Positions 1 to 15,049 of a stretch of 15,049 nucleotides of DNA are shown here, piece by piece. A program made the translations under genes and the position numbers. The notes under the pieces are model-generated. The model did no database searches. It saw nothing but the letters and a program-made list of their open reading frames with translations, and had not been told where the DNA came from. The first letter of the stretch is position 1; each line of letters begins with the position of its first letter. The DNA is taken from the UHGV virus genome UHGV-0082254; one strand, given 5' to 3'. The DNA comes from a virus.

Positions 1-101
1 ATCGGCTCAAACATGAAGAAATGAAATGACTGAGTCAGCCGAGAAGAATTTCCCCGCTTATTCGCACCTTCCCTAACACAGCAAAACTGCTTGCAGAAGA
101 A

Positions 102-764: not shown

Positions 765-803
765 CAAAGGACTTCATTGATAATTTTTCTTCAGGAGGAA
801 GAC

Positions 804-1226: not shown

Positions 1227-1392
1227 CCACCCTGCCCCCAAAAGTGCATTTATGTGCAGGATGCCAGAGTTTAGCAGTGAATATTTTGATGATCTGCCAG
1301 CCTATATCCTTGATACAGAAACGATGCTGATGGGGATTAACAGGAAGAATCGCAACGTTAATGATTACAACCGCGCTATCAGCGGTAACTAA
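1141..1392 (+). CDS. o-spanin-like (Rz1-like) outer-membrane lipoprotein, overlapped architecture
   Basis: +1-frame ORF overlapping the 3' end of the 804..1226 gene and extending 166 nt beyond it. Signal peptide with lipobox (RR)VMFASAFLLTLSG|C; mature part is short and Pro-rich (TPTPT, HPAP) with one further Cys. Start is ambiguous: ATG 1141, TTG 1129 (gives MRRVMFASAFLLTLSGC) or the upstream ATGs at 1060/1081. Confidence 0.5.
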   Translation: MFASAFLLTLSGCSGSRSANLTPTPTKVNHPAPKSAFMCRMPEFSSEYFDDLPAYILDTETMLMGINRKNRNVNDYNRAISGN

Positions 1393-1403
1393 AAGGGATT
1401 TTT

Positions 1404-1796
1404 ATGTCTGATAAAGTAACAGTAAAGCAAACTATCAACAAAGCGACTTCAATCTACAAAATTGAGCACATCACTGTTGGCAAGCCAGGATCTGAACAAT
1501 ACCGTCATGCTTTCGAGCTTGCCGATCAGCTTGGTTTAAAACACCCGGATTGCATCGAGCATGTATTTCCGACCTATGCTGATGAGCAATGTACTCATGT
1601 TCTTACCGAAGAGGATTTTTTCAGCACTGAAGAACGAGAAGGCGTTGATCGCTGCATTGGTGTGATTTGTTCTTCGGTAAGTGATGAGTTATTCCCTAAT
1701 GTGCCTGAATATGGTGGTATTGGATACCAATTCCTGTACGAAGGCGATGAGCTTAAATGTTATGAACATGGTCTTCTTATCGAAAGCGTAGAATAA
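1404..1796 (+). CDS. hypothetical acidic Cys/His-containing protein
   Basis: 130-aa ORF with ATG start and SD AAAGGGA 6 nt upstream. Acidic, with spaced Cys/His (HPDCIEH, EQCTH, DRCIGVICSS, KCYEH) that could bind metal. Followed by a hairpin terminator. Confidence 0.6.
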   Translation: MSDKVTVKQTINKATSIYKIEHITVGKPGSEQYRHAFELADQLGLKHPDCIEHVFPTYADEQCTHVLTEEDFFSTEEREGVDRCIGVICSSVSDELFPNVPEYGGIGYQFLYEGDELKCYEHGLLIESVE

Positions 1797-1809
1797 TACC
1801 CTTCCTTCC

Positions 1810-1836
1810 AACCGGCTATGTTGGCCGGTTTATTCA
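1810..1836 (+). terminator. rho-independent terminator candidate
   Basis: AACCGGC-tatgttg-GCCGGTT stem followed by T-rich TTATTCAACTT, immediately after the 1404..1796 stop. Confidence 0.5.
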
Positions 1837-1838
1837 AC

Positions 1839-1847
1839 TTATCCACA
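1839..1847 (+). promoter_or_regulatory. DnaA box (TTATCCACA) at the plasmid origin
   Basis: Perfect 9-mer TTATCCACA directly upstream of the GATC cluster and iterons, as expected for a P1-type oriR. Confidence 0.7.
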
Positions 1848-1852
1848 GCATA

Positions 1853-1909
1853 GATCCAATAAACAGATCCCAAAGAGAACCTAGGAAGATCCAAAGAAGA
1901 TCCCGGATC
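1853..1909. repeat. cluster of five GATC (Dam) sites in AGATCC-type repeats
   Basis: GATC at 1853, 1866, 1888, 1899 and 1906, four of them within AGATCC(A/C) repeats; lies between the DnaA box and the iterons. Confidence 0.7.
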
Positions 1910-1950
1910 GCTGTAAGCCGCGCCGTTCATGGCCTGAAACGGGATCAACA

Positions 1951-2056
1951 TTGACTATACGCGATTTTATGTTGACTGTGTGCGATTTTATGTTGACTGC
2001 ACGCGATTTATTGTTGACTATACGCGACAGAAACGTTGACTGTACGCGATTTTAGA
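1951..2056 (+). repeat. five direct iterons (incC-like) of the RepA origin
   Basis: TTGACT(A/G)T(A/G)(C/T)GCGATTT(T)A(T/G) repeated at 1951, 1972, 1993, 2014 and 2036 with 21-22 bp periodicity, immediately upstream of repA. Confidence 0.85.
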
Positions 2057-2130
2057 GCCTGAATATTCACAGCTGTTGATAACAGTCATCTAAATTAACG
2101 CCAGGCCGCGCCACACATGGAGAAACCACG

Positions 2131-3015
2131 ATGCCGGAAGAAAGTAAAGGCTTCCTTAGCGTTGAAGAAGTTGCAGGAAATACAGGAGAAATCCACAGCC
2201 TGAAGCCCAATAACAACAGCACTATACAACCTATCGCTTTGTTGCGCTTAGGTGTGTTTGTGCCAACCTTAAAATCTACCAATGTGGCACTACGTCGCGG
2301 ATCGTCAGTTACTACAAACACAACGAACGCAACCGAAGAACTATCAAGCCTTAAAATTGTTGAGCAGGAAGGCTATGAGGGAATTGAAATTCATGGCCCA
2401 CGCCTGGATATGGATACTGATTTTAAGGTGTGGGTGGGCATAACCTCCGCGTTGTTTGACTACGCACCTGATGATGACGGCATAATCACCCTGCCATTCT
2501 CCGAGTTTGCCGATCGATGCGGCTATCCACGTAAGCGCCTTTCAAAGGCGTTCCGTAAAAGTATTGATGACTCTCTGACACGCATTCAGCAGACAGTTGT
2601 CAAATTCCGCTTCCCGGCGGCAAAAGGTCATCTCAATAACATTAACGTCAACTTGTTGGCATATAGCAGCCTGAATACCGAGCTTGATGTTATCGAGATC
2701 CAGCCGCAGAAACAGCTATCTGAACTTTACTATGTTGACTATAAGCGAATCCTGAAGCTGAAGATGCTGGATAAGCTCGGGCGCAAAGAGACGGCCAAGG
2801 TACTGTATACATTCTTTGAGGCTCTACCCGCCAACCCGGCACCTGTCAGCATTGAGCGCCTTAGAGCAAGGCTTAATCTCAAATCATCCGTTAGCGTGCA
2901 AAATAGCGTTATCAGAAAAGCCATGAAAGATTTGGAAGCTATTGAATATCTTAAATTTTCAGAGATAAAAAACGGCAGGAAAATCGGCTTCCAGATCCAT
3001 AAGCGCAATCCATAA
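2131..3015 (+). CDS. repA: iteron-binding plasmid replication initiator RepA (P1 RepA family)
   Basis: 294-aa ORF with SD GGAGAAA, flanked by iteron arrays on both sides. Protein blocks (PIALLRLGVFVP, GPRLDMDTDFKVWVG) resemble P1 RepA as I recall it. Confidence 0.85.
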   Translation: MPEESKGFLSVEEVAGNTGEIHSLKPNNNSTIQPIALLRLGVFVPTLKSTNVALRRGSSVTTNTTNATEELSSLKIVEQEGYEGIEIHGPRLDMDTDFKVWVGITSALFDYAPDDDGIITLPFSEFADRCGYPRKRLSKAFRKSIDDSLTRIQQTVVKFRFPAAKGHLNNINVNLLAYSSLNTELDVIEIQPQKQLSELYYVDYKRILKLKMLDKLGRKETAKVLYTFFEALPANPAPVSIERLRARLNLKSSVSVQNSVIRKAMKDLEAIEYLKFSEIKNGRKIGFQIHKRNP

Positions 3016-3017
3016 TA

Positions 3018-3272
3018 TTGACTATATGCGATAGCGAGAAGTTGACTATAGGCGACATTCGTTGACGCTGGTGGATTTTTGCTGGCGTCAATATTCTGCA
3101 AGTCGCTATTGAGATGGCTTTTAGGGTCATTTCATCGCGTATAGTCAACGTTTCTCCCGACAATATCTTACATAGTCGATCTTTGGTGGAGTTAAATCGA
3201 CTACAGTCAACTTTTGACTGTAGTCACATCGCGCATAGTCAACTATTCACATTAACTTTCGCGCATAGTCAA
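3018..3272. repeat. downstream iteron array (incA-like copy-control locus), about nine sites in both orientations
   Basis: Direct-orientation TTGACTRT.. at 3018, 3042, 3062 (degenerate) and 3214; inverted-orientation ..RTAGTCAA ending at 3148, 3180 (partial), 3210, 3242 and 3272. Confidence 0.8.
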
Positions 3273-3307
3273 CATTTGCGCGGTTCTCATCAAGCAGTGG
3301 TATTGAT

Positions 3308-4117
3308 ATGCAAGAAGAGAAACAACACTACCTCTACGTTCTGGTGCCGGAGAACGGAGATACTTTTAAAATCGGCATTTCATGTGGTCCATTGGCACGG
3401 TTTAAAGGGCTACAAGTGAGTCCCGATTTTGCGCTTTCACGGGTCTATCGTGGTACGCGTTTGGCAATAGTTAATCTTGAGCGGGCTTTACACGCAACCT
3501 TTTTCCCCTGGAATGCGCCGTGGGAGAAAAGCGCTGGTGGCGGGCATACTGAATGGTTTACACGAGAGTGTCTTGATAAGGTTTTGGCTCATATCGAATA
3601 TCTAAATGATATGTGGGGAGGGATTCTCGAGCGCATTAAGTCGAATGATTTACTTCAGCGTCCAGTAGATGCTGCCCGCTCTTTCGAAAAAGAGCTGGAT
3701 GTTACTTCTATCGTGACTTTCAAAGATGACGCAGGAATGAGGGACGTGGCTTATGTCTCCATATCTGGCTATGAACCGGACGCGATCCGCGCTCAATGTG
3801 AATTGCTGAAAGCAATGTTTATGCTTCGGACTAAATATCCCTGGGAGACAAGGCGGGTGTGCTTCCCTATGGAAGAGTTAACCGCCACCATTGATTCCCA
3901 GCTTTACCACGATAATCCAGAGAAGTTTTTTAGCCTTTTAGCCGGTAATGGGCTTAACTGTGTGTCCGGGCTGGGGCGAAGTAGAATCCAACATGCCTCG
4001 CTCTTCGGTCCCTTCTTTTACGATCGACACGGGTACTTTGAGGCTGAACTTCCGGCGCTTACGCGTGCTATAGATACTATCGATTTCGAACGATTATTCG
4101 CTGCTCTTAGCAAATAA
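3308..4117 (+). CDS. T5orf172 / GIY-YIG-like domain protein of unknown function
   Basis: 269-aa ORF with ATG start. The N-terminal ~90 aa carry the T5orf172-type pattern: HYLYVLV ... FKIGIS ... R ... LERALHATF ... GGHTEWF. The C-terminal ~170 aa are unassigned. Sits between incA and the par promoter. Confidence 0.7.
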   Translation: MQEEKQHYLYVLVPENGDTFKIGISCGPLARFKGLQVSPDFALSRVYRGTRLAIVNLERALHATFFPWNAPWEKSAGGGHTEWFTRECLDKVLAHIEYLNDMWGGILERIKSNDLLQRPVDAARSFEKELDVTSIVTFKDDAGMRDVAYVSISGYEPDAIRAQCELLKAMFMLRTKYPWETRRVCFPMEELTATIDSQLYHDNPEKFFSLLAGNGLNCVSGLGRSRIQHASLFGPFFYDRHGYFEAELPALTRAIDTIDFERLFAALSK

Positions 4118-4124
4118 CACTGAT

Positions 4125-4146
4125 GCCCCTGAACGGGGCTTTTTTG
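4125..4146 (+). terminator. rho-independent terminator
   Basis: GCCCC-tgaac-GGGGC stem followed by TTTTTTG, 8 nt after the stop at 4115-4117. Confidence 0.7.
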
Positions 4147-4285
4147 TGCCCTCCTTGTAACTCTCAATCGTGCAAAATGAACCAAACATGCAGAGAATGC
4201 TATGTACAAGCATCTGTGCATACATTATTATTTTATGCAGCATTTTTAATTAAATTCAAAAATACAGCATAAAGGATGGCTTTCG

Positions 4286-5482
4286 ATGAGTGATTCCAGC
4301 CAGCTTCACAAGGTTGCTCAAAGAGCAAACAGAATGCTCAATGTTCTGACTGAACAAGTACAGTTGCAAAAGGATGAGCTACACGCGAACGAGTTTTACC
4401 AGGTCTATGCGAAAGCGGCACTGGCAAAATTGCCTCTACTGACTCGAGCGAACGTTGACTATGCCGTGAGTGAAATGGAAGAAAAGGGTTATGTTTTCGA
4501 TAAACGCCCTGCTGGCTCTTCAATGAAATATGCGATGTCAATTCAGAACATCATTGACATATATGAACATCGCGGAGTGCCAAAATACCGGGATCGCTAC
4601 AGCGAAGCGTATGTGATTTTCATCTCCAATCTTAAAGGCGGTGTGTCAAAAACTGTATCGACGGTTTCTCTGGCGCATGCAATGCGTGCTCACCCTCATC
4701 TTCTGATGGAAGATTTAAGGATTCTGGTTATTGACCTTGATCCGCAATCTTCAGCAACGATGTTTTTAAGCCATAAACACTCTATTGGTATCGTAAACGC
4801 AACATCTGCACAGGCTATGTTGCAGAATGTAAGCCGTGAAGAGCTGTTAGAGGAGTTTATTGTTCCTTCTGTTGTACCTGGGGTTGACGTTATGCCTGCG
4901 TCGATTGACGATGCCTTTATTGCATCCGATTGGAGAGAGCTGTGCAATGAGCATCTACCGGGTCAGAACATCCATGCTGTCCTGAAAGAAAATGTGATTG
5001 ATAAGCTGAAGAGCGATTATGACTTTATCCTCGTTGATAGTGGTCCTCACCTTGACGCCTTCCTGAAAAATGCTTTGGCCTCGGCCAATATACTGTTTAC
5101 ACCTTTGCCGCCTGCAACGGTTGATTTCCACTCATCGCTTAAATACGTTGCCCGCCTTCCTGAGTTGGTGAAACTCATTTCGGATGAAGGCTGCGAGTGC
5201 CAGCTTGCGACTAACATTGGTTTTATGTCCAAGTTGAGTAACAAGGCAGACCATAAGTATTGCCATAGCCTGGCTAAAGAAGTGTTCGGTGGGGATATGC
5301 TTGATGTCGTCCTCCCTCGCCTTGACGGTTTTGAACGCTGCGGCGAGTCTTTTGACACTGTTATTTCAGCTAACCCGGCAACGTATGTTGGTAGTGCTGA
5401 TGCATTGAAGAACGCGCGAATTGCCGCGGAAGATTTTGCTAAAGCAGTTTTCGACCGTATTGAATTTATCAGATCTAACTGA
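4286..5482 (+). CDS. parA: partition ATPase ParA (type Ia, P1/P7 type)
   Basis: 398 aa; deviant Walker A box LKGGVSKT; long N-terminal extension typical of type Ia ParA; SD AAAGGATGG. Sequence and length match P1 ParA as I recall it. Confidence 0.9.
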   Translation: MSDSSQLHKVAQRANRMLNVLTEQVQLQKDELHANEFYQVYAKAALAKLPLLTRANVDYAVSEMEEKGYVFDKRPAGSSMKYAMSIQNIIDIYEHRGVPKYRDRYSEAYVIFISNLKGGVSKTVSTVSLAHAMRAHPHLLMEDLRILVIDLDPQSSATMFLSHKHSIGIVNATSAQAMLQNVSREELLEEFIVPSVVPGVDVMPASIDDAFIASDWRELCNEHLPGQNIHAVLKENVIDKLKSDYDFILVDSGPHLDAFLKNALASANILFTPLPPATVDFHSSLKYVARLPELVKLISDEGCECQLATNIGFMSKLSNKADHKYCHSLAKEVFGGDMLDVVLPRLDGFERCGESFDTVISANPATYVGSADALKNARIAAEDFAKAVFDRIEFIRSN

Positions 5483-5498
5483 GGAGTAAGAAACCCCC

Positions 5499-6500
5499 AT
5501 GTCAAAGAAAAACAGACCAACAATTGGGCGAACCCTTAATCCTTCAATATTAAGCGGATTTGATAGTTCTTCAGCCTCTGGCGATCGAGTCGAGCAGGTA
5601 TTCAAGTTATCAACTGGTCGCCAGGCCATATTTATTGAAGAGGTAATACCTCCGAACCAGGTAGAAAGCGATACCTTTGTTGATCAGCATAACAACGGGC
5701 GTGACCAGGCATCTCTTACGCCAAAATCATTAAAAAGTATCCGAAGCACTATTAAGCATCAGCAATTTTACCCTGCAATAGGTGTTAGACGGGCTACAGG
5801 GAAAATTGAAATTTTGGATGGTTCCCGGCGTCGAGCTTCTGCCATCTTAGAGAACGTAGGGTTGCGGGTTTTAGTCACGGACCAGGAGATCAGCGTTCAG
5901 GAAGCGCAAAATTTAGCGAAAGACGTTCAGACAGCATTGCAGCACAGCATTCGAGAAATAGGTCTGCGTTTGATGCGAATGAAAAATGATGGGATGAGTC
6001 AGAAGGATATTGCAGCCAAAGAAGGGCTGTCTCAGGCGAAGGTCACGCGTGCTCTCCAGGCAGCGAGTGCTCCGGAAGAATTAGTCGCCCTTTTCCCTGT
6101 GCAGTCGGAATTAACCTTTTCGGACTACAAAACGCTTTGTGCTGTTGGCGACGAAATGGGGAACAAGAATTTAGAGTTTGATCAGCTTATTCAAAACATA
6201 TCCCCGGAAATAAACGACATCTTATCCATTGAAGAAATGGCCGAAGATGAAGTTAAAAATAAAATCCTGCGCTTGATAACAAAGGAAGCCTCACTACTCA
6301 CGGATAAAGGTTCTAAAGATAAGTCCGTAGTTACTGAATTATGGAAATTTGAGGACAAGGATCGCTTTGCAAGGAAGCGCGTGAAAGGCCGTGCATTTTC
6401 TTATGAGTTTAATCGACTCTCAAAAGAGTTACAGGAAGAACTCGACAGGATGATTGGGCATATCCTTAGAAAGAGCCTCGATAAAAAGCCGAAGCCTTAA
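5499..6500 (+). CDS. parB: centromere-binding protein ParB (P1/P7 type)
   Basis: 333 aa, SD GAGGAG, immediately downstream of parA and followed by parS; sequence matches P1 ParB as I recall it. Confidence 0.9.
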   Translation: MSKKNRPTIGRTLNPSILSGFDSSSASGDRVEQVFKLSTGRQAIFIEEVIPPNQVESDTFVDQHNNGRDQASLTPKSLKSIRSTIKHQQFYPAIGVRRATGKIEILDGSRRRASAILENVGLRVLVTDQEISVQEAQNLAKDVQTALQHSIREIGLRLMRMKNDGMSQKDIAAKEGLSQAKVTRALQAASAPEELVALFPVQSELTFSDYKTLCAVGDEMGNKNLEFDQLIQNISPEINDILSIEEMAEDEVKNKILRLITKEASLLTDKGSKDKSVVTELWKFEDKDRFARKRVKGRAFSYEFNRLSKELQEELDRMIGHILRKSLDKKPKP

Positions 6501-6590
6501 ACTTTCGCCATTCAAATTTCACCATTAAATTACTGTTTTTAAAGTAAATCCTTCTAAAATTTCAAGGTGAAATCGCCACGATTTCACCTT
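6501..6590 (+). other. parS centromere (P1-type box A / box B arrangement around an AT-rich IHF-like core)
   Basis: Box B TCGCCA at 6504 and 6573; box A ATTTCAC at 6516 and 6581 and inverted GTGAAAT at 6567; AT-rich central segment between them. Confidence 0.8.
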
Positions 6591-6643
6591 GGATTTTACC
6601 TTTTCCCCCCTCCTCCCGAAAAAAAAAAATTTCTTGTCACGAG

Positions 6644-6671
6644 AAAGTCAACAAGTGACTTTCAATAAAAT
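6644..6671 (+). promoter_or_regulatory. candidate late-type promoter: palindrome AAAGTCA-N5-TGACTTT plus -10-like TAAAAT
   Basis: Perfect 7-bp inverted repeat at 6644-6662, followed after 3 nt by ATAAAAT, about 50 bp upstream of the first structural gene. Promoter function is inferred from position only. Confidence 0.3.
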
Positions 6672-6722
6672 CTCTTCCGAAAAGGGATTCACACAAGTGC
6701 CTTGTGTTTAAGGAAGAGTAAA

Positions 6723-8429
6723 TTGAGTAACTTACGCGAATACCAGAATCGTATTGCAGATATCGCAAAACGCTCTAAAGCTGTGCTTGGCTGGGCAAGC
6801 ACTGCGCAGTTCGGTACTGATAACCAATTCATTAAAGATGATGCCGCGCGTGCCGCATCTATCCTTGAAGCTGCACGTAAAGACCCGGTTTTTGCGGGTA
6901 TCTCTGATAATGCCACCGCTCAAATCGCTACAGCGTGGGCAAGTGCACTGGCTGACTACGCCGCAGCACATAAATCTATGCCGCGTCCGGAAATTCTGGC
7001 CTCCTGCCACCAGACGCTGGAAAACTGCCTGATTGAGTCCACCCGCAATAGCATGGATGCCACTAATAAAGCGATGCTGGAATCCGTCGCAGCAGAGATG
7101 ATGAGCGTTTCTGACGGTGTTATGCGTCTGCCTTTATTCCTCGCGATGATCCTGCCTGTTCAGTTGGGGGCAGCTACCGCTGATGCGTGTACCTTCATTC
7201 CGGTTACGCGTGACCAGTCCGACATCTATGAAGTCTTTAACGTGGCAGGTTCCTCTTTTGGTTCTTATGCTGCTGGTGATGTTCTGGACATGCAATCCGT
7301 CGGTGTGTACAGCCAGTTACGTCGCCGCTATGTGCTGGTGGCAAGCTCCGATGGCACCAGCAAAACCGCAACCTTCAAGATGGAAGACTTCGAAGGCCAG
7401 AATGTACCAATCCGAAAAGGTCGCACTAACATCTACGTTAACCGTATTAAGTCTGTTGTTGATAACGGTTCCGGCAGCCTACTTCACTCGTTTACTAATG
7501 CTGCTGGTGAGCAAATCACTGTTACCTGCTCTCTGAACTACAACATTGGTCAGATTGCCCTGTCGTTCTCCAAAGCGCCGGATAAAGGCACTGAGATCGC
7601 AATTGAGACGGAAATCAATATTGAAGCCGCTCCTGAGCTGATCCCGCTGATCAACCACGAAATGAAGAAATACACCCTGTTCCCAAGCCAGTTCGTTATC
7701 GCGGCTGAGCATACGGTACAGGCGGCGTATGAAGCACAGCGTGAATTTGGTCTGGACCTGGGTTCCCTACAGTTCCGCACCCTGAAGGAATACCTGTCTC
7801 ATGAACAGGATATGCTGCGTCTTCGCATTATGATCTGGCGTACTCTTGCGACCGACTCCTTTGACATCGCTTTGCCGGTTAACCAGTCCTTTGATGTATG
7901 GGCAACCATCATTCGTGGCAAATTCCAGACTGTATATCGCGACATTATTGAGCGCGTTAAATCTTCTGGTGCGATGGGGATGTTTGCTGGTGCTGATGCA
8001 GCATCTTTCTTCAAACAGTTGCCGAAGGATTTCTTCCAGCCAGCCGAAGACTATATCCAGACTCCGTATGTTCACTACATCGGTACCCTGTTCGGTAACG
8101 TGAAAGTGTACGAAGTACCTGCTGGTATTTGTAAGAATTTAACGACAGAGAACATTCAGTTCAGCTCGATGGATGTGCTGTGCTACGTCCGTGATGAAAA
8201 TCCGGGTAAAGCAGGCTTCGTGACTGGTGATGCTGTCCCGGCTATCCCGTTCCAGCATCCGACCACTCCGGCGCTGGTCAACCGTACCACGCTGTGGGGT
8301 TCGGCTATCAACGATATGCACCCACGCAACGGCGCTGATTACTTCACTCGTGTAACGCTGACAATGGCCAAAAAAGGCGGGCTTAACTTTATAAGCGGCG
8401 ACACGATTGATGCCGGTGACTCTGAGTAA
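6723..8429 (+). CDS. virion structural protein, probably the major head protein precursor (P1 gp23-like position)
   Basis: Frame is open from 6702, but there is no ATG in the first ~90 codons. Best start is TTG at 6723, 6 nt after SD AGGAAG (TTG at 6702 has no SD). Long ORF heading the structural operon directly after parS. Confidence 0.45.
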   Translation: MSNLREYQNRIADIAKRSKAVLGWASTAQFGTDNQFIKDDAARAASILEAARKDPVFAGISDNATAQIATAWASALADYAAAHKSMPRPEILASCHQTLENCLIESTRNSMDATNKAMLESVAAEMMSVSDGVMRLPLFLAMILPVQLGAATADACTFIPVTRDQSDIYEVFNVAGSSFGSYAAGDVLDMQSVGVYSQLRRRYVLVASSDGTSKTATFKMEDFEGQNVPIRKGRTNIYVNRIKSVVDNGSGSLLHSFTNAAGEQITVTCSLNYNIGQIALSFSKAPDKGTEIAIETEINIEAAPELIPLINHEMKKYTLFPSQFVIAAEHTVQAAYEAQREFGLDLGSLQFRTLKEYLSHEQDMLRLRIMIWRTLATDSFDIALPVNQSFDVWATIIRGKFQTVYRDIIERVKSSGAMGMFAGADAASFFKQLPKDFFQPAEDYIQTPYVHYIGTLFGNVKVYEVPAGICKNLTTENIQFSSMDVLCYVRDENPGKAGFVTGDAVPAIPFQHPTTPALVNRTTLWGSAINDMHPRNGADYFTRVTLTMAKKGGLNFISGDTIDAGDSE

Positions 8430-8489
8430 TCAGGGGAAGTTCTCCGTTTAACATAGCGCCCCCGTGCGGGGCGCATAACAGGGAAAGTT

Positions 8490-9980
8490 ATGTCTCAATA
8501 TTCAATTCAACAGTCATTAGGTAATGCATCCGGCGTCGCGGTTAGCCCGATCAATGCCGATGCGACGTTATCTACAGGTGTTGCATTAAATAGCAGCTTG
8601 TGGGCTGGTATTGGCGTATTTGCGCGTGGCAAGCCGTTTACTGTTCTTGCGGTTACTGAGTCCAATTACGAAGATGTTCTCGGCGAACCGCTGAAGCCGT
8701 CTTCCGGCTCACAGTTCGAACCAATTCGCCATGTATACGAAGCTATTCAGCAAACGTCTGGTTATGTTGTCCGTGCTGTTCCGGATGATGCGAAGTTCCC
8801 GGTTATTATGTTCGATGAATCAGGCGAACCGGCTTACAGTGCGTTGCCATACGGTTCTGAAATTGAACTTGATAGCGGCGAAGCCTTTGCTATCTACGTT
8901 GATGATGGTGATCCGTGTATTTCACCTACCCGTGAGTTAACCATTGAAACGGCAACAGCGGACAGCGCAGGTAATGAACGCTTCCTCCTGAAACTGACCC
9001 AGACGACTTCGCTCGGCGTGGTAACGACCCTGGAGACACACACTGTGTCTTTGGCGGAAGAAGCGAAAGATGACATGGGCCGCTTGTGTTATCTGCCTAC
9101 GGCTCTGGAAGCCCGTTCTAAATATCTGCGCGCGGTTGTTAATGAAGAGCTGATTTCGACCGCGAAAGTAACAAATAAAAAATCACTGGCGTTCACTGGC
9201 GGTACCAACGGCGATCAGTCGAAAATCTCCACCGAAGCCTACCTGCGTGCGGTTAAGGTGCTGAACAATGCGCCGTACATGTACACCGCTGTTCTCGGCC
9301 TGGGTTGCTATGACAATGCGGCGATCACCGCGTTAGGTAATATCTGTTCTGATCGCCTGATTGATGGCTTCTTTGATGTCAAACCGACATTGACGTACAC
9401 GGAAGCGCTCTCTGCTGTTGAAGATACCGGTTTACTTGGTACCGATTATGTAAGCTGTGCTGTCTATCACTTCCCGTTCTCCTGCAAAGACAAATGGACC
9501 CAATCCCGTGTGGTCTTCGGTCTGTCTGGCGCGGCGTATGCGGCGAAAGCTCGTGGCGTCAAGAAAAACTCTGATGTCGGCGGTTGGCATTACTCACCGG
9601 CTGGTGAAGAACGTGCCGTCATTGCTCGTGCGTCAATTCAACCGCTGTATCCGGAAGATACCCCGGACGAAGAAGCAATGGTTAAGGGCCGCCTCAATAA
9701 AGTATCTGTTGGCACCTCTGGCCAGATGATCATCGACGATGCTTTAACTTGCTGCACGCAGGATAACTATCTGCACTTCCAGCACGTCCCATCCCTGATG
9801 AATGCAATCAGCCGTTTCTTTGTCCAGTTAGCCCGCCAGATGAAGCATAGCCCTGACGGTACAGAACCGTATGTGCTGAAAGTTACGCAGGCGGAATTCG
9901 ATAAATGGGAAGTAGTCTGGGCCTGCTGCCCGACTGGCGTAGCCCGTCGTATCCAGGGCGTACCGCTGCTTATTAAGTAA
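8490..9980 (+). CDS. contractile tail sheath protein
   Basis: 496 aa, SD AGGGAAAG. C-terminal blocks (GGWHYSP..., VSVGTSGQMIIDDALTC) resemble the conserved C-terminal region of Myoviridae sheath proteins; located upstream of tube-like genes. Confidence 0.55.
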   Translation: MSQYSIQQSLGNASGVAVSPINADATLSTGVALNSSLWAGIGVFARGKPFTVLAVTESNYEDVLGEPLKPSSGSQFEPIRHVYEAIQQTSGYVVRAVPDDAKFPVIMFDESGEPAYSALPYGSEIELDSGEAFAIYVDDGDPCISPTRELTIETATADSAGNERFLLKLTQTTSLGVVTTLETHTVSLAEEAKDDMGRLCYLPTALEARSKYLRAVVNEELISTAKVTNKKSLAFTGGTNGDQSKISTEAYLRAVKVLNNAPYMYTAVLGLGCYDNAAITALGNICSDRLIDGFFDVKPTLTYTEALSAVEDTGLLGTDYVSCAVYHFPFSCKDKWTQSRVVFGLSGAAYAAKARGVKKNSDVGGWHYSPAGEERAVIARASIQPLYPEDTPDEEAMVKGRLNKVSVGTSGQMIIDDALTCCTQDNYLHFQHVPSLMNAISRFFVQLARQMKHSPDGTEPYVLKVTQAEFDKWEVVWACCPTGVARRIQGVPLLIK

Positions 9981-9989
9981 GGGAATACA

Positions 9990-10805
9990 ATGAGCAAAAA
10001 CTTTTTTCAATCCGGGGCATTTTTGGGGAATGGACTGTCCCGTTTCGCTTTGAACTCTGATCCTGTGCAGCTGATGGAGTCTGCCCGAGCAAGCGCCGAA
10101 CCGCCAACAGATCCGGTTATTAATAATAATCCGGAACCGGCGGCACAGACTAACGATAACGTTCCATCTGCCCCGGCTCCTGAGCAAATCCTGGAAGGGA
10201 AAGACGGTAAAGAATGGACCGTCGAACAGGCGCACCAGATGATTCTGGAAGCTGCAAATCGAAGTGCTATGCAGAATGCGTTGAGTGATGCGGCCGACGC
10301 CGTTTTCGCCTGGGCTGATAGCGGTGATCTGACTTTCGACTCCCTTGATGGTTTCGTTCAGGCTATCGCTGGTATCTCTGATGACGACGACTCCGAAGTT
10401 ACAGAAGAACAGGACGATGCCTATAACGAAGCATGGGCAAATGTTGCTGACTTCCTCGCAGCATGCGGTGTAGATGATGACCTGATCGAAGCACTGGCTG
10501 ACGATGAAGACGACGACGCAGCCGCTGATGTTGGTGCCTCTATCGCTGGTTTAGATAGCGACGACCGTGACGAACTGGAAGCGGCGTTTGTTGTTGCTGG
10601 CACTTCTGATGAAATGCTGACTGAAGCATTTAAGAAGGTTGTTCGTAACGGTGAGATCAAACTCATCCGTAAACGCCTGCGTAAAAAACGTCTGACTGCG
10701 GCTCAAAAATCGGCGCTGAAAAAAGCGCGTCGTAAAGCCCAGACCGGCGCGGCAAAACTGGCCCGCAAAAAGTCAATGAAACTGCGCCGTAAGCGCCTCG
10801 GCTAA
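9990..10805 (+). CDS. hypothetical virion-associated protein with acidic core and highly basic C-terminal tail
   Basis: 271 aa, SD AAGGGAA. Asp/Glu-rich centre (ISDDDDSEVTEEQDD, ADDEDDDAAAD) and a Lys/Arg-rich last ~45 aa (IRKRLRKKRL...KLRRKRLG). Confidence 0.7.
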   Translation: MSKNFFQSGAFLGNGLSRFALNSDPVQLMESARASAEPPTDPVINNNPEPAAQTNDNVPSAPAPEQILEGKDGKEWTVEQAHQMILEAANRSAMQNALSDAADAVFAWADSGDLTFDSLDGFVQAIAGISDDDDSEVTEEQDDAYNEAWANVADFLAACGVDDDLIEALADDEDDDAAADVGASIAGLDSDDRDELEAAFVVAGTSDEMLTEAFKKVVRNGEIKLIRKRLRKKRLTAAQKSALKKARRKAQTGAAKLARKKSMKLRRKRLG

Positions 10806-10840
10806 AGGAGGAGGCCGGAGAACTCCGGCCTTTAACTTGA

Positions 10841-11422
10841 ATGGCACCTATACCTTATGGGGTTTACAGCCAGGCTGACGGTGTATCGCCATATCTGAAA
10901 GTTACTTTAACGAACTCTCAGTACCAGGTTACCGGATATATCAGCCAGGGAGCGGCAATGAACATGGCCCAGAATTGGGAAGCGCCGTTTACCGGTATGT
11001 CCATGGGATCTGTTGCTGGTGCCTTCAGTGGTTTTGCGCAGGTTGGTACTGAAACAACGTCGGTTGCCCGTTGGAACAGCTTAATGGTTTGGGAAGGGGG
11101 AACACCGCCGACTTTCACGCTGCCAGTAACTTTCATCGCTTTGTTTGACCCATTCACGGAGGTTTCAGGAGCTATCGCCGCATTGTCAGCGATGATTAGC
11201 CCGGAACTTAAAGATGCCAGTATTGGTGGTCGAATCCCGGAGCGTGTGACGCTAAACATTGGTCGCCGGATCAACATCATTGATGTCGCTATCCAGGACA
11301 TAAGTTTCGATCTCGATGCGCCCAGGGACAGCAATGGGCATTTCCTGAAAAACACCGTCAACCTCCAGTTGACCGGTTCTTCGATATATAACAGCTCCGA
11401 TATTGTTCGGGCGTTCCAGTAA
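10841..11422 (+). CDS. hypothetical tail protein (size compatible with tube or tail-completion protein)
   Basis: 193-aa ORF with ATG start in the structural operon. The only SD (AGGAGG, 10806-10811) is separated from the ATG by a hairpin. Confidence 0.6.
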   Translation: MAPIPYGVYSQADGVSPYLKVTLTNSQYQVTGYISQGAAMNMAQNWEAPFTGMSMGSVAGAFSGFAQVGTETTSVARWNSLMVWEGGTPPTFTLPVTFIALFDPFTEVSGAIAALSAMISPELKDASIGGRIPERVTLNIGRRINIIDVAIQDISFDLDAPRDSNGHFLKNTVNLQLTGSSIYNSSDIVRAFQ

Positions 11423-11433
11423 AAGGATTTTAT

Positions 11434-11943
11434 ATGGGGCACAATAACACTAAGGGAAACCGTAAATTTATTAAGGGCCGCTATACTGCCAACGCGGCCA
11501 AAGGCGAACGACTGGTATCTTCTGAATTCCAGCTCACTTTTGCAGGCCATGAAGATATCAGCGTACTGGTTCGCACGTCGCAAATTCCTGAAATGACCCG
11601 CGAGGATGTGGAGGACTATGGTCCGAATGGTGTGAAGTTCAACCAGCACGGTCCAATTCGAAACTCTGGGGAAATCCAGGTCCAGTGCGTGGAGACTATC
11701 GAAGGCGATATTCTTCAGTTCATTAAAGATCGCATTGCGGCGAAGGACTATGTTGATATCACGATGGCTGCGACCCCTGAATCCAAATCTTCCGGGGTTA
11801 ACGCTGTGACAAAAGCTGCTACAACAATTGAAATGTTGGACTGCAAAATCTACAGTGATGCAATCGACTTTAGTACCGAAGATGTGACTGCCGCTGTGCG
11901 CCCGTCACTTCGTATCGTCTACAACTGGATTGAGTGGGATTAA
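11434..11943 (+). CDS. tail tube-like protein (T4 gp19-like pattern)
   Basis: 169 aa, SD AAAGGA. Pattern FQLTF ... GVKF ... GEIQVQCVET ... ends ...YNWIEWD, resembling gp19-family tube proteins that end in an aromatic-acidic motif. Confidence 0.5.
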   Translation: MGHNNTKGNRKFIKGRYTANAAKGERLVSSEFQLTFAGHEDISVLVRTSQIPEMTREDVEDYGPNGVKFNQHGPIRNSGEIQVQCVETIEGDILQFIKDRIAAKDYVDITMAATPESKSSGVNAVTKAATTIEMLDCKIYSDAIDFSTEDVTAAVRPSLRIVYNWIEWD

Positions 11944-11962
11944 GAGTTATCCCTTGTATTTT

Positions 11963-11989
11963 AAAGCTCCTTCGGGAGCTTTTTTATTT
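11963..11989 (+). terminator. rho-independent terminator of the structural operon
   Basis: AAAGCTCC-TTCG-GGAGCTTT stem with UUCG tetraloop followed by TTTTTATTT. Confidence 0.8.
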
Positions 11990-12059
11990 GGAGAGGAAAG
12001 GGTGCATTGAGGATACCTGACACACGAAGAGTGGCGGGGATCTCTCCCCGCCAGGTCTC

Positions 12060-12215
12060 TTACCTTTCAGATTCGTAGGCTGTGAAGACAGTGACCTCCG
12101 TCTGGCCGGTTCGGATTCGTACCTCGCAGAGGTCTTTTCTCGTTACCAGTGCCGTCACTATGACGGTTAAACAGATGACGATCAGAGCGATTAACATCGC
12201 TTTTTGCTGCTTCAT
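12060..12215 (-). CDS. hok: Hok/Gef-family type I toxin
   Basis: 51-aa minus-strand ORF MKQQKAMLIALIVICLTVIVTALVTRKDLCEVRIRTGQTEVTVFTAYESER with the Hok family signature; SD AAGGAG 9 nt upstream; GGCGGGGA-gaga-TCCCCGCC 3' stem-loop on the mRNA strand at 12022-12041. Confidence 0.85.
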   Translation of the reverse strand: MKQQKAMLIALIVICLTVIVTALVTRKDLCEVRIRTGQTEVTVFTAYESER

Positions 12216-12273
12216 AGCCTGCTTCTCCTTGACCTTTTGGTCGGTAAGAGGCTAATCTACGTATGCTAAGCAT
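12067..12273 (-). CDS. mok: mok-like overlapping reading frame (modulator of hok translation)
   Basis: 68-codon frame starting 58 nt upstream of hok in a different frame and ending 7 nt from the hok stop, the arrangement seen in hok/mok/sok loci. Confidence 0.55.
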   Translation of the reverse strand: MLSIRRLASYRPKGQGEAGYEAAKSDVNRSDRHLFNRHSDGTGNEKRPLRGTNPNRPDGGHCLHSLRI

Positions 12274-12549
12274 AGATATGGCCTCAGATTAATGTTAAGC
12301 GTCTTGCAGGACGCGTAATGTTATCTGGGGCTTTCTTCTATCTGCTTTTCGGGTAATGCCTGAAGCAGATAGCCTCAAGCACCCGCAGCGATTGTATCAA
12401 TGTCTGGCTTTTTTTCTATAGAAATCACCTGGAAGGGTGAATACCCACATCAGAAGAAACGTTGCAGCAAACATGATCCCTAATGGCCAGACCGCGCCAA
12501 AGAAAATCCATACTGAAAACGCCAGGTGACTCCAGATTAGAGCAATCTA

Positions 12550-13395
12550 TCACCCTCTGAATCCCGCCGGTATACCCCATTGTTCGTTATCTTTATTTTT
12601 GGCTAAAACCGCATTAAGAGCTTCGTTTACCGTCATGCAATGCGGTAGGTTATCGAAGTTTGATATCCCGCCAATATCAGGCGAACGCTTGTTCTTCAGG
12701 TAAGCATATTTCCGCGCAGCCGCCTCTACTTTCTGCTTGAACTCATGTTTTTGAGCGCGTTTTTGGGATAACCGCAGATTGTCAGCCTTTGCTTTTGCCT
12801 CAGCGATCCATGAAGTCAATTTTTTGAGTCTGGACGTTCCGGCACCGCCGGAAACTGATCTTTTTGTTTTTTTAACTTGTGACTTCTTATTCTTTATTGC
12901 CACGTCATCCTGACAGGGGGAGGGGGTATCATTTTGACATGGGGGTGTGGATATAAAATTAAATAAAGCCAATGACTTAGCGATAACAGCTTTAACCTTG
13001 GTTGCCGCTGAAGAGATCTTTAATTTGCTTTCAGTCAGCGCATTTTTGGCTTGTTGTGCGAAGGCCAAAAAGGATGGTGTAAACCGGTACAGGTTAGCGC
13101 GACGTTCACGGTGATCGCCGATAACAATCTCTACAGACAGGATTCCTTTGTTTACAGCTTCACGGAATGCACGAACGACGGTTGATTGGCTATAACCAGT
13201 TTCTGCCGCGATCAGGCGGTGAGGCTTGTGAATGAAGTATTCACTGGTTGTTGCCGCGAGATTTGCACATTGCGACAGGATATGCCCGGCGCTACGGGAT
13301 AGACCGGAGTGTGTTACAAAGCAGGCCAATTCATAGCCAGAAAAAGTAAAATCGCTCATCGTTATACAGCTCAGGAAAGTGACTTTAGCCAGCAT
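12550..13395 (-). CDS. repL: lytic replication protein RepL-like
   Basis: 281 aa, directly downstream of the KilA-N gene in the same orientation, under a C1-operator-like site: the P1 kilA-repL arrangement. No convincing SD at either the first ATG or the internal ATG at 13359. Confidence 0.6.
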   Translation of the reverse strand: MLAKVTFLSCITMSDFTFSGYELACFVTHSGLSRSAGHILSQCANLAATTSEYFIHKPHRLIAAETGYSQSTVVRAFREAVNKGILSVEIVIGDHRERRANLYRFTPSFLAFAQQAKNALTESKLKISSAATKVKAVIAKSLALFNFISTPPCQNDTPSPCQDDVAIKNKKSQVKKTKRSVSGGAGTSRLKKLTSWIAEAKAKADNLRLSQKRAQKHEFKQKVEAAARKYAYLKNKRSPDIGGISNFDNLPHCMTVNEALNAVLAKNKDNEQWGIPAGFRG

Positions 13396-13424
13396 TACAA
13401 TGCTGGTGGTTCTTACTACGTCTG

Positions 13425-14225
13425 TTAGCGCGTTGCCGCGACAGGTACCAGCACACCAGCATCAAGCAATCGCTTCATCAGCCACTGCTGACCTTTGCCG
13501 GTTATACGAGTCGTGAAAGAAATCCTGCTTCCATTGCTTGTATCGATCACGGTTTCTTTAAGGGTGAAATACCCACGGGATATGTATTCTTGTTTGGGGA
13601 CGTTCCTGCGTTCACCGGTTGCGATCAGAATTCCGTTATCACGCAACCAGGTGAAGAGATAGTTTTGGCCCAGGCCGAGCACTTTGGCATAGTTGCCGAT
13701 TAGAACCCCGCTGGCGGTAGCAACGCGTTCGGCGAATTCGACTTTAGGTGCATCCATAAGCATTTTTTGCTCCAGCCGTTGCTTTTGCTCTGCCAGGTCG
13801 GCAGCCAAACGGAGAGCTTCAGGGAGACTCTGCGGAATAGCAGGTTGTAATCTTCCAGCTCGATAGTCGATAAATGTCTGGTTTACCTTCAGCCGAAACG
13901 CGGGAGAAATCCAACCAGCGTACTCCACTGCGAGCAATTCATGGGCAAAAGTGCCGCCGCCACGGCCTTCGAACGAAACTATGCAATTCTGCATAGTTTC
14001 TTTTTCAAGCTCTTCGATGAGCTGTTTAGCTGACAGCGTTCTTAGCCATTGAGCTGGCGCTTTATGGGCACCGAGTCCGCTCGCTCTGTGTAGAGCATTA
14101 AGGTTGTAACGGCCAGCGCGGTCGGTCGTAATTTCAACACCACAAATAACGGGAAGAGTGGTTGAAGGATCGACATTTTGATGAAGGTTTGATATATTCA
14201 TATCCGCATTGAATGTTTGTTGCAT
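13425..14225 (-). CDS. kilA: KilA-N + KilAC (ANT) two-domain protein, KilA-like
   Basis: 266 aa, SD GGAGAAAAA. N-terminal KilA-N-like region; C-terminal KilAC/antirepressor region (LPEALRLAADLAEQ ... NYAKVLGLGQNYLFTWLRDNGIL ... RGYFTLKE ... TGKGQQWL). Confidence 0.65.
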   Translation of the reverse strand: MQQTFNADMNISNLHQNVDPSTTLPVICGVEITTDRAGRYNLNALHRASGLGAHKAPAQWLRTLSAKQLIEELEKETMQNCIVSFEGRGGGTFAHELLAVEYAGWISPAFRLKVNQTFIDYRAGRLQPAIPQSLPEALRLAADLAEQKQRLEQKMLMDAPKVEFAERVATASGVLIGNYAKVLGLGQNYLFTWLRDNGILIATGERRNVPKQEYISRGYFTLKETVIDTSNGSRISFTTRITGKGQQWLMKRLLDAGVLVPVAATR

Positions 14226-14294
14226 TTTTTCTCCAAATTTGCATCAACCTTCAATCACCAGCTCGAAATGGTGATTCTTTGCACTTAGAAAGCG

Positions 14295-14311
14295 AAATTT
14301 ATTAGAGCAAA
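14295..14311 (-). promoter_or_regulatory. C1 repressor operator-like 17-mer
   Basis: Minus-strand TTTGCTCTAATAAATTT matches the P1 C1 operator consensus ATTGCTCTAATAAATTT at 16 of 17 positions; about 70 bp upstream of kilA. Confidence 0.6.
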
Positions 14312-14354
14312 TTTTTCTAACTCGATCCAGATCGGGTTGGTCGATCTGCTCAGA

Positions 14355-14384
14355 AACCTGCCAGTTTGCTGGCAGGTTTTTTCT
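14355..14384. terminator. strong hairpin between the ant-like gene and kilA (terminator-like)
   Basis: AACCTGCCAG-tttg-CTGGCAGGTT perfect 10-bp stem followed by TTTTTTC on the + strand; on the minus strand it lies just after the ant-like stop but has only a 3-U tail. Confidence 0.5.
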
Positions 14385-14388
14385 TTTG

Positions 14389-14910
14389 TTAACCTATTGC
14401 TACTGGTTTTAACAAACCAGCATCAAGTAGCTTGCGAGTTAACCACTGCTGGCCTTTACCCGTTAATTGGGGCGTCAGCCGTATCTGGTAGCCATTTTCA
14501 TCATCCAACACCACTTCTTTCACCGTGAAATACCCGGCGTTGATGTACTGTTGGTGCGATACGTTTTTGCGCGCACCAAAAGCCATGAGAATGCCGTTCT
14601 GGCGCAACCATGAGAAAAGGGCGTTTTGCTTAAGTCCAACGACCTTTGCAAAGTTCCCGATCAGGATTCCATTGGCCACTGATACCCGGTCGGCAAAATC
14701 GACTTTAGGGGCTGCGGCCACCAGCTGTTGTTCCAACTGCATTTTCTGTTCTGCTAACTCGGCAGCCAGGCGTAGGGCTTCTGGTAATGTCTGGGGGATC
14801 GATGGGGTAGGGGAGTTTGCCTGCTGTAATTCTTCCAGTTTGTCGATCAGCGAACGGCGGACCGCTTTTGACTCGCGCGCGGCAACTCGCAGGGCTTGTT
14901 TGTAGGTCAT
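14389..14910 (-). CDS. stand-alone KilAC (ANT) domain protein, antirepressor-like
   Basis: 173 aa; in-frame stop at 15010-15012 and no alternative start in between, so complete in the window. Roughly 60% identical by eye to the C-terminal domain of the adjacent KilA (LPEALRLAAELAEQ ... NFAKVVGLKQNALFSWLRQNGIL ... AGYFTVKE ... TGKGQQWL). Confidence 0.65.
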   Translation of the reverse strand: MTYKQALRVAARESKAVRRSLIDKLEELQQANSPTPSIPQTLPEALRLAAELAEQKMQLEQQLVAAAPKVDFADRVSVANGILIGNFAKVVGLKQNALFSWLRQNGILMAFGARKNVSHQQYINAGYFTVKEVVLDDENGYQIRLTPQLTGKGQQWLTRKLLDAGLLKPVAIG

Positions 14911-14943
14911 TGTTATAATATCTATTTCTGCGCCGTTTTTTTG

Positions 14944-14964
14944 ACCTACGAAAATTTCGTAGGT
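14944..14964. promoter_or_regulatory. perfect 10-bp inverted repeat ACCTACGAAA-a-TTTCGTAGGT upstream of the ant-like gene
   Basis: 21-bp perfect palindrome 34-54 bp upstream of the ant-like start codon; candidate operator or RNA hairpin. Confidence 0.4.
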
Positions 14965-15049
14965 TTCTCCTTCAAGTTCATCCTTAACTCTGGCGGTAAT
15001 GACTCCAACTTATTGATAGTGTTTTATGTTCAGATAATGCCCGATGACT

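Follow-up and report, generated by a model that had tools for sequence, protein, structure and literature searches.

The window analysed here is a stretch of 15,049 nucleotides from a virus genome, UHGV-0082254, and its last part carries on the minus strand the gene repL, the gene kilA, an open reading frame (ORF) of 173 aa and the end of an insertion sequence IS1 (Table 1). The original prediction had placed ORFs of 173 and 266 aa in this region, assigned an ANT/KilAC domain to both products and a KilA-N domain to the 266-aa product only, and recognized the neighbourhood of the ant and kilA genes of P1; both ORFs are found as described, the domain assignments are reproduced by Pfam profile search, and the neighbourhood agrees with P1 in sequence comparison as well as in annotation. 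The DNA of repL-kilA-ant is 98-99% identical to that of P1, P7 and RCS47, and P1-like plasmids match the window over bases 73-14994; by such comparison the window is identified as a segment of a P1-like (Punavirus) phage-plasmid, and the part studied here is where the immI region meets the lytic replicon. In intact relatives, the order along the minus strand is c4 RNA, icd, ant1/ant2, the operator and promoter Op53/P53, kilA and repL. Ant1 (344-347 aa) and Ant2 (about 261-264 aa, from an in-frame internal start) form the antirepressor, which inactivates the C1 repressor. The annotation notes of P1 state that C1 is inactivated through binding of the Ant1/Ant2 complex, and describe icd as an upstream gene apparently needed for ant expression. 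A functional P1-type operon has the P51 promoters and C4 target sites ahead of ant, and its icd overlaps the start of ant1. Plaque formation of P1 is possible without ant, icd, c4 and kilA, all four of which are dispensable (PMC10695390).

Table 1. Features at the repL-kilA-ant end of the window, in order of position.
Feature	Position	Strand	Remark
repL (lytic replication initiator, contains oriL)	12550..13395	-	matches P1 repL
kilA, intact, 266 aa (KilA-N + KilAC)	13425..14225	-	8 nt and 1 aa from P1 kilA
ANT/KilAC domain of KilA, Ant-type	13464..13772	-	residues 152-254, Pfam E 2e-32
KilA-N domain of KilA	13857..14147	-	residues 27-123
Antisense promoter PaskilA (P53as), within the 5' end of kilA	14170..14198	+	consensus scan
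C1 operator OrepL (Op53)	14295..14311	-	overlaps promoter PkilA/P53 (14301-14329)
Dam GATC sites, three	14324-14327, 14330-14333, 14343-14346		read directly
Intrinsic-terminator-like hairpin + T run, between ant and kilA	14352..14381	+	terminator scan
ant1/ant2 3' remnant, pseudogene	14389..14994	-	codons 144-344 of the 344-aa RCS47/pfosA3-type Ant1 + stop codon
173-aa ORF	14910..14389	-	portion of the ant remnant downstream of internal Met172
ANT/KilAC domain (PF03374), complete, in the ant remnant	14425..14733	-	residues 60-162 of the 173-aa ORF
IS1 right end (IS1B-like), runs off the window	14995..15049	-	GGTAATGACTCCAACTTATTGATAG..., read directly

The elements that make up the kilA-repL operon of P1 are all found in the window, namely the 266-aa KilA, repL, the operator Op53 overlapping P53, and P53as. 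In KilA, the KilA-N domain (PF04383) scores 75.4 bits (E 3.7e-21; gathering threshold 23.8 bits) and the KilAC domain (PF03374) scores 112.2 bits over profile positions 1-106 of 108, while repL, which follows kilA within one operon under C1 control, gives only weak HTH signals in Pfam. The control region between ant and kilA is 98% identical to that of P1; operator and promoter positions were carried over from the P1 annotation with a constant offset of 9535, and the operator and the GATC sites were in addition read directly. PaskilA was recovered by the scan at its annotated P1 position (TCGACA-17-TATATT, extended TG, 10/12 matches). The hairpin between ant and kilA, a stem of 13 pairs followed by TTTTTTCTTTT, is conserved in P1 and pfosA3, and is likely the end of the antisense RNA, which would then run for about 180 nt from its annotated start at 14206. 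Compared with P1 KilA and its operon under Op53 and P53as, the operator, the Dam sites, the antisense promoter and repL are the same and the protein is one amino acid apart, so that there is no material difference except that the neighbouring ant is broken in the window. In the annotation of P1 (NC_005856), kilA carries the remark 'product can kill host', and host killing on KilA expression is reported in the literature (PMC8201110), from which we infer the activities of KilA and of the KilAC domain here. The operon, the C1 operator, the Dam sites and the antisense promoter are intact and presumably work as in P1, and KilA, a non-essential and host-toxic protein, would be co-produced with RepL upon release of C1 from Op53.

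The situation is quite different for the 173-aa ORF, which the original prediction took for a stand-alone ant-like gene. Going upstream from the ATG at 14910, the frame continues open through 28 further ant codons, up to 14994, and this ATG corresponds to the internal Met172 of Ant1, the first in-frame ATG in the truncated gene; the length of 173 aa arises because ORF calling takes this first in-frame ATG. The remnant is 97% identical to RCS47 Ant1 over the C-terminal 201 residues, from about residue 143. The closest intact ant alleles are those of RCS47 (FO818745) and of plasmid pfosA3 (NZ_CP047005): over the last 201 codons the remnant is 8 nt away from RCS47, with a protein about 89% identical to that of P1, and it shows 2 nt differences in 606 to the intact pfosA3 ant1 (344 aa), the break falling after codon 143. 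Both differences from pfosA3 are nonsynonymous and change the adjacent KilAC residues 289 and 290 (P289S and R290H), and the Pro hit by P289S is conserved in P1 Ant1, RCS47 Ant1 and KilA. Instead of a full-length Ant1 frame with its own start codon, codons 144-344 alone are found, bounded on their upstream side by IS1 at 14994/14995. The best PHROG for the remnant ORF is the full-length Ant family phrog_63, matched at profile positions 191-365 of 431. In the Pfam search the ORF matches PF03374 with 105 bits (E 3.5e-30; profile positions 1-106 of 108; gathering threshold 25.3 bits); full-length Ant1 has its KilAC domain at the C-terminus, and KilA-N (PF04383) has no match either in the remnant or in full-length Ant1.

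As originally observed, the ORF falls far short of P1 Ant in length, the annotated Ant1 of P1 having 347 aa and Ant2 264 aa. The Ant2 coding sequence is 795 nt long in P1 and 786 nt long in RCS47, and the remnant has only 606 nt; the start of Ant2, at about codon 84 of Ant1, is therefore situated upstream of the break, and the identification of the 173-aa ORF with Ant2 (about 261-264 aa) is ruled out. A naturally short ant allele is ruled out too, as the ant1 coding sequences of P1, RCS47 and pfosA3 have 344-347 aa; P1, P7 and RCS47 are each annotated with both ant1 and ant2. Compared with ant1/ant2 in the immI region of P1 and P7, the remnant is found in the same place, immediately upstream of Op53-kilA-repL, and has the same C-terminal KilAC, but it lacks the first 143 codons including the starts of both Ant1 and Ant2 and is therefore unable to make either protein, and it has IS1 upstream instead of icd, the c4 RNA and the P51 promoters.

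At the junction, the terminal inverted repeat of IS1 (GGTAATGACTCCAAC..., with the end GGTAATGACTCCAACTTATTGATAGTG...) begins at 14995 and abuts the open ant frame. The 55 nt of the IS1 end match IS1/IS1B transposase annotations at 100%, the translation of the 3' end of insB finishes with ...VIGHYLNIKHYQ, i.e. ...KHYQ, and the stop codon of insB (15012..15010) shares the frame of the ant remnant, which it precedes by five codons. The window stops within IS1, and its sequence of this molecule does not extend to the other side of the element. A window that terminates in this way might suggest that the ant::IS1 junction is an artefact of assembly or a chimera, with ant intact in the source, as IS1 is highly repeated (with matches in 4962 of 5426 genomes) and repeats are a frequent cause of misjoins. 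We regard such an artefact as extremely improbable. Among 5426 complete E. coli genomes, nine share the identical junction (100% over 120 nt); they were assembled independently and come from various countries and sources, and CP056627.1 has the junction too. Furthermore, the ant1 of NZ_CP062860.1 contains a second, independent simple insertion of IS1, flanked by a clean duplication of 9 bp, and ant1 is thus a genuine target of IS1.

The relatives that share the junction also bear on the fate of the remaining part of ant. In CP056627.1, which is 100% identical, the two flanks of IS1 are unlike (aactctggc and cgaacgcag) and there is no 9-bp duplication, which indicates a deletion or replacement. 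Past IS1, the same-junction relatives carry TraI-domain, MobI(A/C) and MobH genes, and the DNA beyond the element in this lineage is IncA/C plasmid sequence. The one carrier examined in full, the 94.7-kb CX21 plasmid, is a P1 remnant heavily riddled with IS, and it has lost this part of immI: a BLAST search across the whole plasmid gives no match to the 5' part of ant, to icd or to c4. By the flanks and by the CX21 plasmid, a simple insertion of IS1, behind which ant would continue, is ruled out for the same-junction relatives. In the window, Rfam detects no C4 RNA, and from these relatives we infer that icd and c4 have probably been lost in this molecule as well. Taking these results together, we put at roughly 93% the probability that the 173-aa ORF is the 3' end of a P1-type ant1/ant2 cut by IS1, lying beside an intact kilA-repL, and that the remnant is likely silent. 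IS1 sits inside ant1 after codon 143. As proposed here, this came about by a deletion or replacement that IS1 mediated rather than by simple insertion, and the event would have removed the 5' part of ant, icd and c4 together with the promoter; what is left over is a promoter-less and start-less 3' fragment still encoding a whole KilAC domain.

Regarding the expression of this fragment, a promoter scan, an insensitive one that missed the documented P53 as well, found no minus-strand promoter-like site upstream of it, and reading of the sequence found no GGAG-type Shine-Dalgarno before the ATG at 14910. In the two junction-bearing copies examined, PGAP/RefSeq annotates the remnant as a 603-nt pseudogene, 'incomplete; missing N-terminus'. 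In all likelihood the fragment is a pseudogene and silent, and there may be low-level read-through transcription from IS1, with whose insB it is co-oriented and in frame. The original prediction had named a recent truncation pseudogene as the outcome contrary to its own reading, and the IS1 junction and the pseudogene annotation in two relatives are of exactly this kind.

The original prediction had instead suggested an antirepressor/host-killing module with partitioned functions. In such a case the ORF would encode a functional stand-alone KilAC/Ant protein, expressed via IS1 read-through or a cryptic promoter and paired with KilA, to which the complete KilAC domain and the open frame co-oriented with insB could be taken to point. 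Isolated KilAC is indeed active elsewhere. For AriS of Listeria (AntA/B+KilAC), KilAC alone blocks the SOS response via SOS/RecA inhibition (PMC9043618), and for Gp07 of the S. aureus phage phi11 (Bro-N+KilAC), KilA-C alone leads to filamentation and a block of cell division (PMC5944126); these proteins are alike in combining a variable N-terminal domain with a C-terminal KilAC, which by experimental evidence is the effector part there, but they have other N-terminal domains, other hosts and distant sequences, and such an activity of the P1 KilAC domains would be putative. CreP of Acinetobacter baylyi is a KilAC-only toxin of 103 aa, repressed by CRISPR and causing filamentation, and the profile of the family phrog_9438 has just 121 positions, and the product of the remnant would likewise be little beyond a KilAC domain; however, CreP and its like are encoded by entire genes under regulated promoters of their own (bioRxiv 10.1101/2024.01.05.574328), whereas the remnant is a leftover of an IS insertion without its own start signals and does not qualify as an independent gene of about 100-120 aa. 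What is more, the start of the ORF is a Met from within ant1, of which an intact allele exists only 2 nt away, the ORF has neither a Shine-Dalgarno nor a promoter-like site, and it has lost the native promoter, icd and the start codons of Ant1 and Ant2. The changes since the truncation are solely nonsynonymous, the junction is rare (9/5426 genomes), and its fully examined carrier plasmid and the PGAP calls in relatives also speak against such a protein. A functional protein and a working pair with KilA are thus very unlikely, and the ORF is to be read as a 3' remnant of ant1.

The similarity between the two KilAC regions is nevertheless as clear as originally claimed. The 173-aa ORF and the C-terminal half of KilA align without gaps over 136 aa with 65% identity (E 1e-66), at the DNA level the identity is 63% for this stretch and 65.6% for the 273 nt aligned by BLAST, and synonymous sites are saturated (pS 0.79) against a pN of 0.24, so that protein similarity, drifted DNA and purifying selection are all borne out. 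The old duplication deduced from them holds for the intact ant and kilA of all P1-like phages, where it is already known, and does not hold as a feature of this window; in fact the relationship between the KilAC regions of Ant and KilA is the source of the name of Pfam PF03374. Within KilA, the core (residues 171-258) shows 62-70% identity with KilAC of the Ant type or pRha type and 21-37% with KilAC of other KilA-N proteins, and block-wise over residues 126-258 the corresponding ranges are 53-78% and 19-60%. By this pattern KilA reads as a chimera, in which a KilA-N lineage gives way to a C-terminal half of Ant type around residue 125. When KilA was compared by phmmer with all sequences of the PDB, none matched at E <= 1. 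The AlphaFold model is of moderate quality (mean pLDDT 71, pTM 0.38; KilAC core 80-92), and Foldseek comparison of it with the PDB gave none at E <= 0.001, the best being weak winged-helix proteins at E > 0.1. It might be speculated, though we hold it to be rather unlikely, that an Ant-type module consisting of the linker helix and KilAC (from about residue 126 on) was swapped onto a foreign KilA-N, that KilA and Ant share a partner, either the C1 complex or each other, and that KilA is a second antirepressor under the control of C1.

On the whole, what was originally observed at this locus is partly confirmed and its interpretation partly supported, with the central reading being wrong, and the finding itself is ordinary and already known: a P1 ant truncated by IS1 beside the well-known intact kilA-repL. 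Its significance beyond annotation is small, in that a mechanical ORF call beside an insertion sequence mimics a new small gene. The immI/lytic-replication region of P1-like plasmids is a hotspot of IS-mediated remodelling (PMC6906374), and the loss of the antirepressor arm c4-icd-ant is consistent with this known pattern. The sharp boundary of the domain swap in KilA is a mildly useful by-product, and makes a shared target of KilA and Ant worth considering. If KilA were such a second antirepressor, it would reinforce derepression, and in the ant-deleted lineage this part of the operon would hold no other intact KilAC gene; with read-through from IS1 in addition, the KilAC-only remnant of ant could add to the activity of KilA or interfere with it.

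The minus strand carries three head-to-tail ORFs of 281, 266 and 173 aa. The 2.65 kb around them shares 98-99% identity with phages P1, P7, RCS47 and SJ46 and with hundreds of P1-like (IncY) plasmids; these records annotate the three genes as repL, kilA and ant1/ant2. The gene order of the window is RepA-like initiator, parA, parB, structural genes 23/22/21, pmgG, bplB, hok/sok, repL, kilA and ant. Homology to P1-like plasmids spans bases 73-14994, and since it starts at base 73, just after the end of an IS5, the 15-kb P1-like segment is bracketed by IS5 and IS1. In the place of P1's pmgF-rlfB-rlfA, between bplB and repL, the window has the hokD/sok pair. A 269-aa ORF, annotated as a GIY-YIG nuclease in a 98.5%-identical relative, is placed between the RepA-like initiator (2131..3015) and parA; possibly the plasmid replication/partition region has here taken up a homing-endonuclease-like insert.

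Coordinates of the features annotated in the window
Feature	Position	Strand or sequence	Basis
IS5 end	1-72	reverse complement of GGAAGGTGCGAATAAGCGGGG...	IS5 terminal sequence
269-aa ORF	3308-4117	+	T5orf172 domain, E 7.6e-06
hokD toxin gene	12060..12215	-	Pfam HOK_GEF, E 2.4e-22
sok antisense RNA	12210..12384	- strand region	Rfam RF01794, 114.9 bits
281-aa ORF	13395..12550	-	ORF call; repL by annotated matches
266-aa ORF	14225..13425	-	ORF call; kilA by annotated matches
Antisense promoter P53as	14170-14198		recovered independently by scan
C1 operator Op53	14295-14311	reverse complement TTTGCTCTAATAAATTT	transferred from P1 annotation and read directly
P53 promoter	14301-14329	overlaps Op53	transferred from P1 annotation
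Terminator	14352-14381	+	terminator scan
173-aa ORF	14910..14389	-	ORF call; ant1/ant2 by annotated matches
IS1 end	14995-15049	-	read from sequence and matches

Papers that cite Iyer et al. 2002 state that KilAC was first delineated at the C-terminus of P1 KilA. The ANT/KilAC domain PF03374, entitled "Phage antirepressor protein KilAC domain" in Pfam, was found at residues 60-162 of the 173-aa ORF (E 3.5e-30) and at residues 152-254 of the 266-aa ORF (E 2e-32), while KilA-N (PF04383) occurs only in the latter (residues 27-123, E 3.7e-21). An ungapped alignment of the C-terminal halves of the two proteins spans 136 residues (65% identity, E 1e-66); the DNA of this block is 63% identical, and BLAST aligned 273 nt at 65.6%. 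The Nei-Gojobori count gave a saturated pS of 0.79 against a pN of 0.24, which together with the amino acid identity bears out the factual description in the original prediction, namely that the two clearly related copies have diverged in nucleotide sequence while purifying selection has maintained them.

The proposal that the 173-aa ORF is a short stand-alone ant-like gene does not survive comparison with intact alleles. P1 ant1 encodes 347 aa and ant2, from an in-frame internal start, 264 aa; in RCS47 the annotated lengths are 344 and 261 aa. On the minus strand, the frame of the 173-aa ORF has no stop from its ATG (14910) back to the IS1 junction, reading first ...KHYQ* (where IS1 insB stops), next VGVIT, then ARVKDELEGETYEIFVGQKNGAEIDIIT-M-TYKQ..., and from ARVKDE onward it corresponds to RCS47 Ant1 from residue 144. 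The 606 nt from junction to stop differ at only 2 positions from pfosA3 (NZ_CP047005, Ant1 344 aa), the closest intact allele found, and by this comparison ant1 is broken after codon 143. Because the break falls there and the frame stays open into IS1, the ATG chosen by the ORF finder is the internal Met172 of Ant1. By the P1 annotation, the start codons of both Ant1 and Ant2 lie upstream of the break, and so do the C4 antisense RNA, the P51 promoters and the overlapping icd gene, on which ant expression apparently depends. No Shine-Dalgarno motif was seen before ATG 14910 (…GCAGAAATAGATATTATAACA-ATG, read directly), and an insensitive scan of that strand, which missed P53 too, gave no promoter-like site. 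The remnant belongs only to the domain family, and qualifies neither as a functional ant gene nor as a stand-alone KilAC gene; it is a truncation product of ant, the recent truncation pseudogene that the original prediction named as its own refutation, and is most likely silent.

Its two differences from pfosA3 are adjacent and both nonsynonymous, P289S and R290H (14473-14478, in the KilAC domain), and Pro289 is conserved in P1 Ant1, RCS47 Ant1 and KilA. These changes, only two as a sample, suggest relaxed constraint and may represent early pseudogene decay, for which two are too few.

Of 5426 complete E. coli genomes, 9 have exactly this ant::IS1 junction (99-100% identity over 120 nt), as does plasmid CP056627.1. 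A simple insertion of IS1 into ant1 is known from NZ_CP062860.1 (16064-17875), where an independent copy split ant1 after roughly codon 89 and duplicated a 9-bp target; both ant1 halves are kept there and icd is intact. At the junction studied here, the 9 bp flanking IS1 in CP056627.1 differ between the two sides, and beyond IS1 the junction-bearing relatives have IncA/C transfer genes (TraI-domain, MobI(A/C), MobH), not ant. The ant 5' part, icd and c4 of pfosA3 have no BLAST match in the entire 94.7-kb CX21 plasmid (NZ_CP081764.1), a P1 remnant heavily riddled with IS elements which shares the junction, and C4 RNA was not found in the window, where sok is the only Rfam match. Judged on these comparisons, the junction is a deletion, not a simple insertion. 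As the insertion in NZ_CP062860.1 is independent, IS1 has struck ant1 of P1-like plasmids more than once, which makes the gene a recurrent target, in agreement with the reported hotspot of IS-mediated change in the immI/lytic-replication region of these plasmids (PMC6906374). The CX21 plasmid has a further KilAC pseudogene ("missing N-terminus") at 24214-24459, adjoining the c1 repressor gene, with DNA 84% identical to the ant 3' end.

The downstream genes are intact. KilA differs from P1 KilA at one residue, and the ant-kilA intergenic region, 98% identical to P1, retains Op53, P53 and three Dam sites (from P1 annotation, read directly); the plus-strand terminator could end the antisense RNA. 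In the best-supported account, the kilA-repL operon would work as in P1, with C1 repressing at Op53 and derepression allowing RepL to start replication at oriL while KilA is co-produced. KilA is non-essential and toxic when expressed (P1 annotation; PMC8201110; PMC10695390), and the list of non-essential genes includes ant1, ant2, icd, c4 and kilA (PMC10695390). Loss of c4-icd-ant would take away the antirepressor route to derepression, something that a plasmid-maintained replicon tolerates.

Block-wise comparison indicates that KilA is itself a chimera, with a domain swap at about residue 125, the start of the linker helix. Over residues 26-125 it shares 70-93% identity with KilA-N+KilAC proteins of Serratia, Salmonella, Klebsiella and Aeromonas, which reach 19-60% over 126-258 and 21-37% over the KilAC core (171-258). 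Ant-type and pRha-type KilAC proteins, by contrast, are at most 24% identical over 26-125 and 53-78% across 126-258, and with P1 Ant1 and the remnant included, 58-78% in the linker (126-155) and the core. The switch makes the predicted duplication a domain-level event: its old age stands, since synonymous sites are saturated (pS 0.79), and what was joined long ago would be an Ant-type linker and KilAC to a KilA-N of another lineage. This fits the domain shuffling attributed to the family by papers citing Iyer et al. 2002.

The predicted structure of KilA is moderate (mean pLDDT 71, KilAC core 80-92), with weak fold matches only, which would agree with an APSES-like fold for KilA-N and a small winged-helix-like one for KilAC. 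Elsewhere, SOS suppression by Listeria AriS is achieved with the KilAC domain on its own, probably through RecA (PMC9043618), the KilA-C part of S. aureus phi11 Gp07 makes E. coli filament irreversibly (PMC5944126), and CreP, a 103-aa KilAC-only toxin, blocks division with weak FtsZ co-precipitation (bioRxiv 10.1101/2024.01.05.574328). All parts of the locus map onto described entities: P1 ant1/ant2, truncated, P1 kilA-repL, intact, and IS1. There is a small probability that the ant remnant has a product, or that KilA acts as a second antirepressor through the Ant-type module it shares with Ant; KilA as a further antirepressor is a suggestion of M. Lobocka (personal communication, as cited in PMC8201110). 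The domain swap gives a rationale for asking if KilA and Ant have a partner in common.
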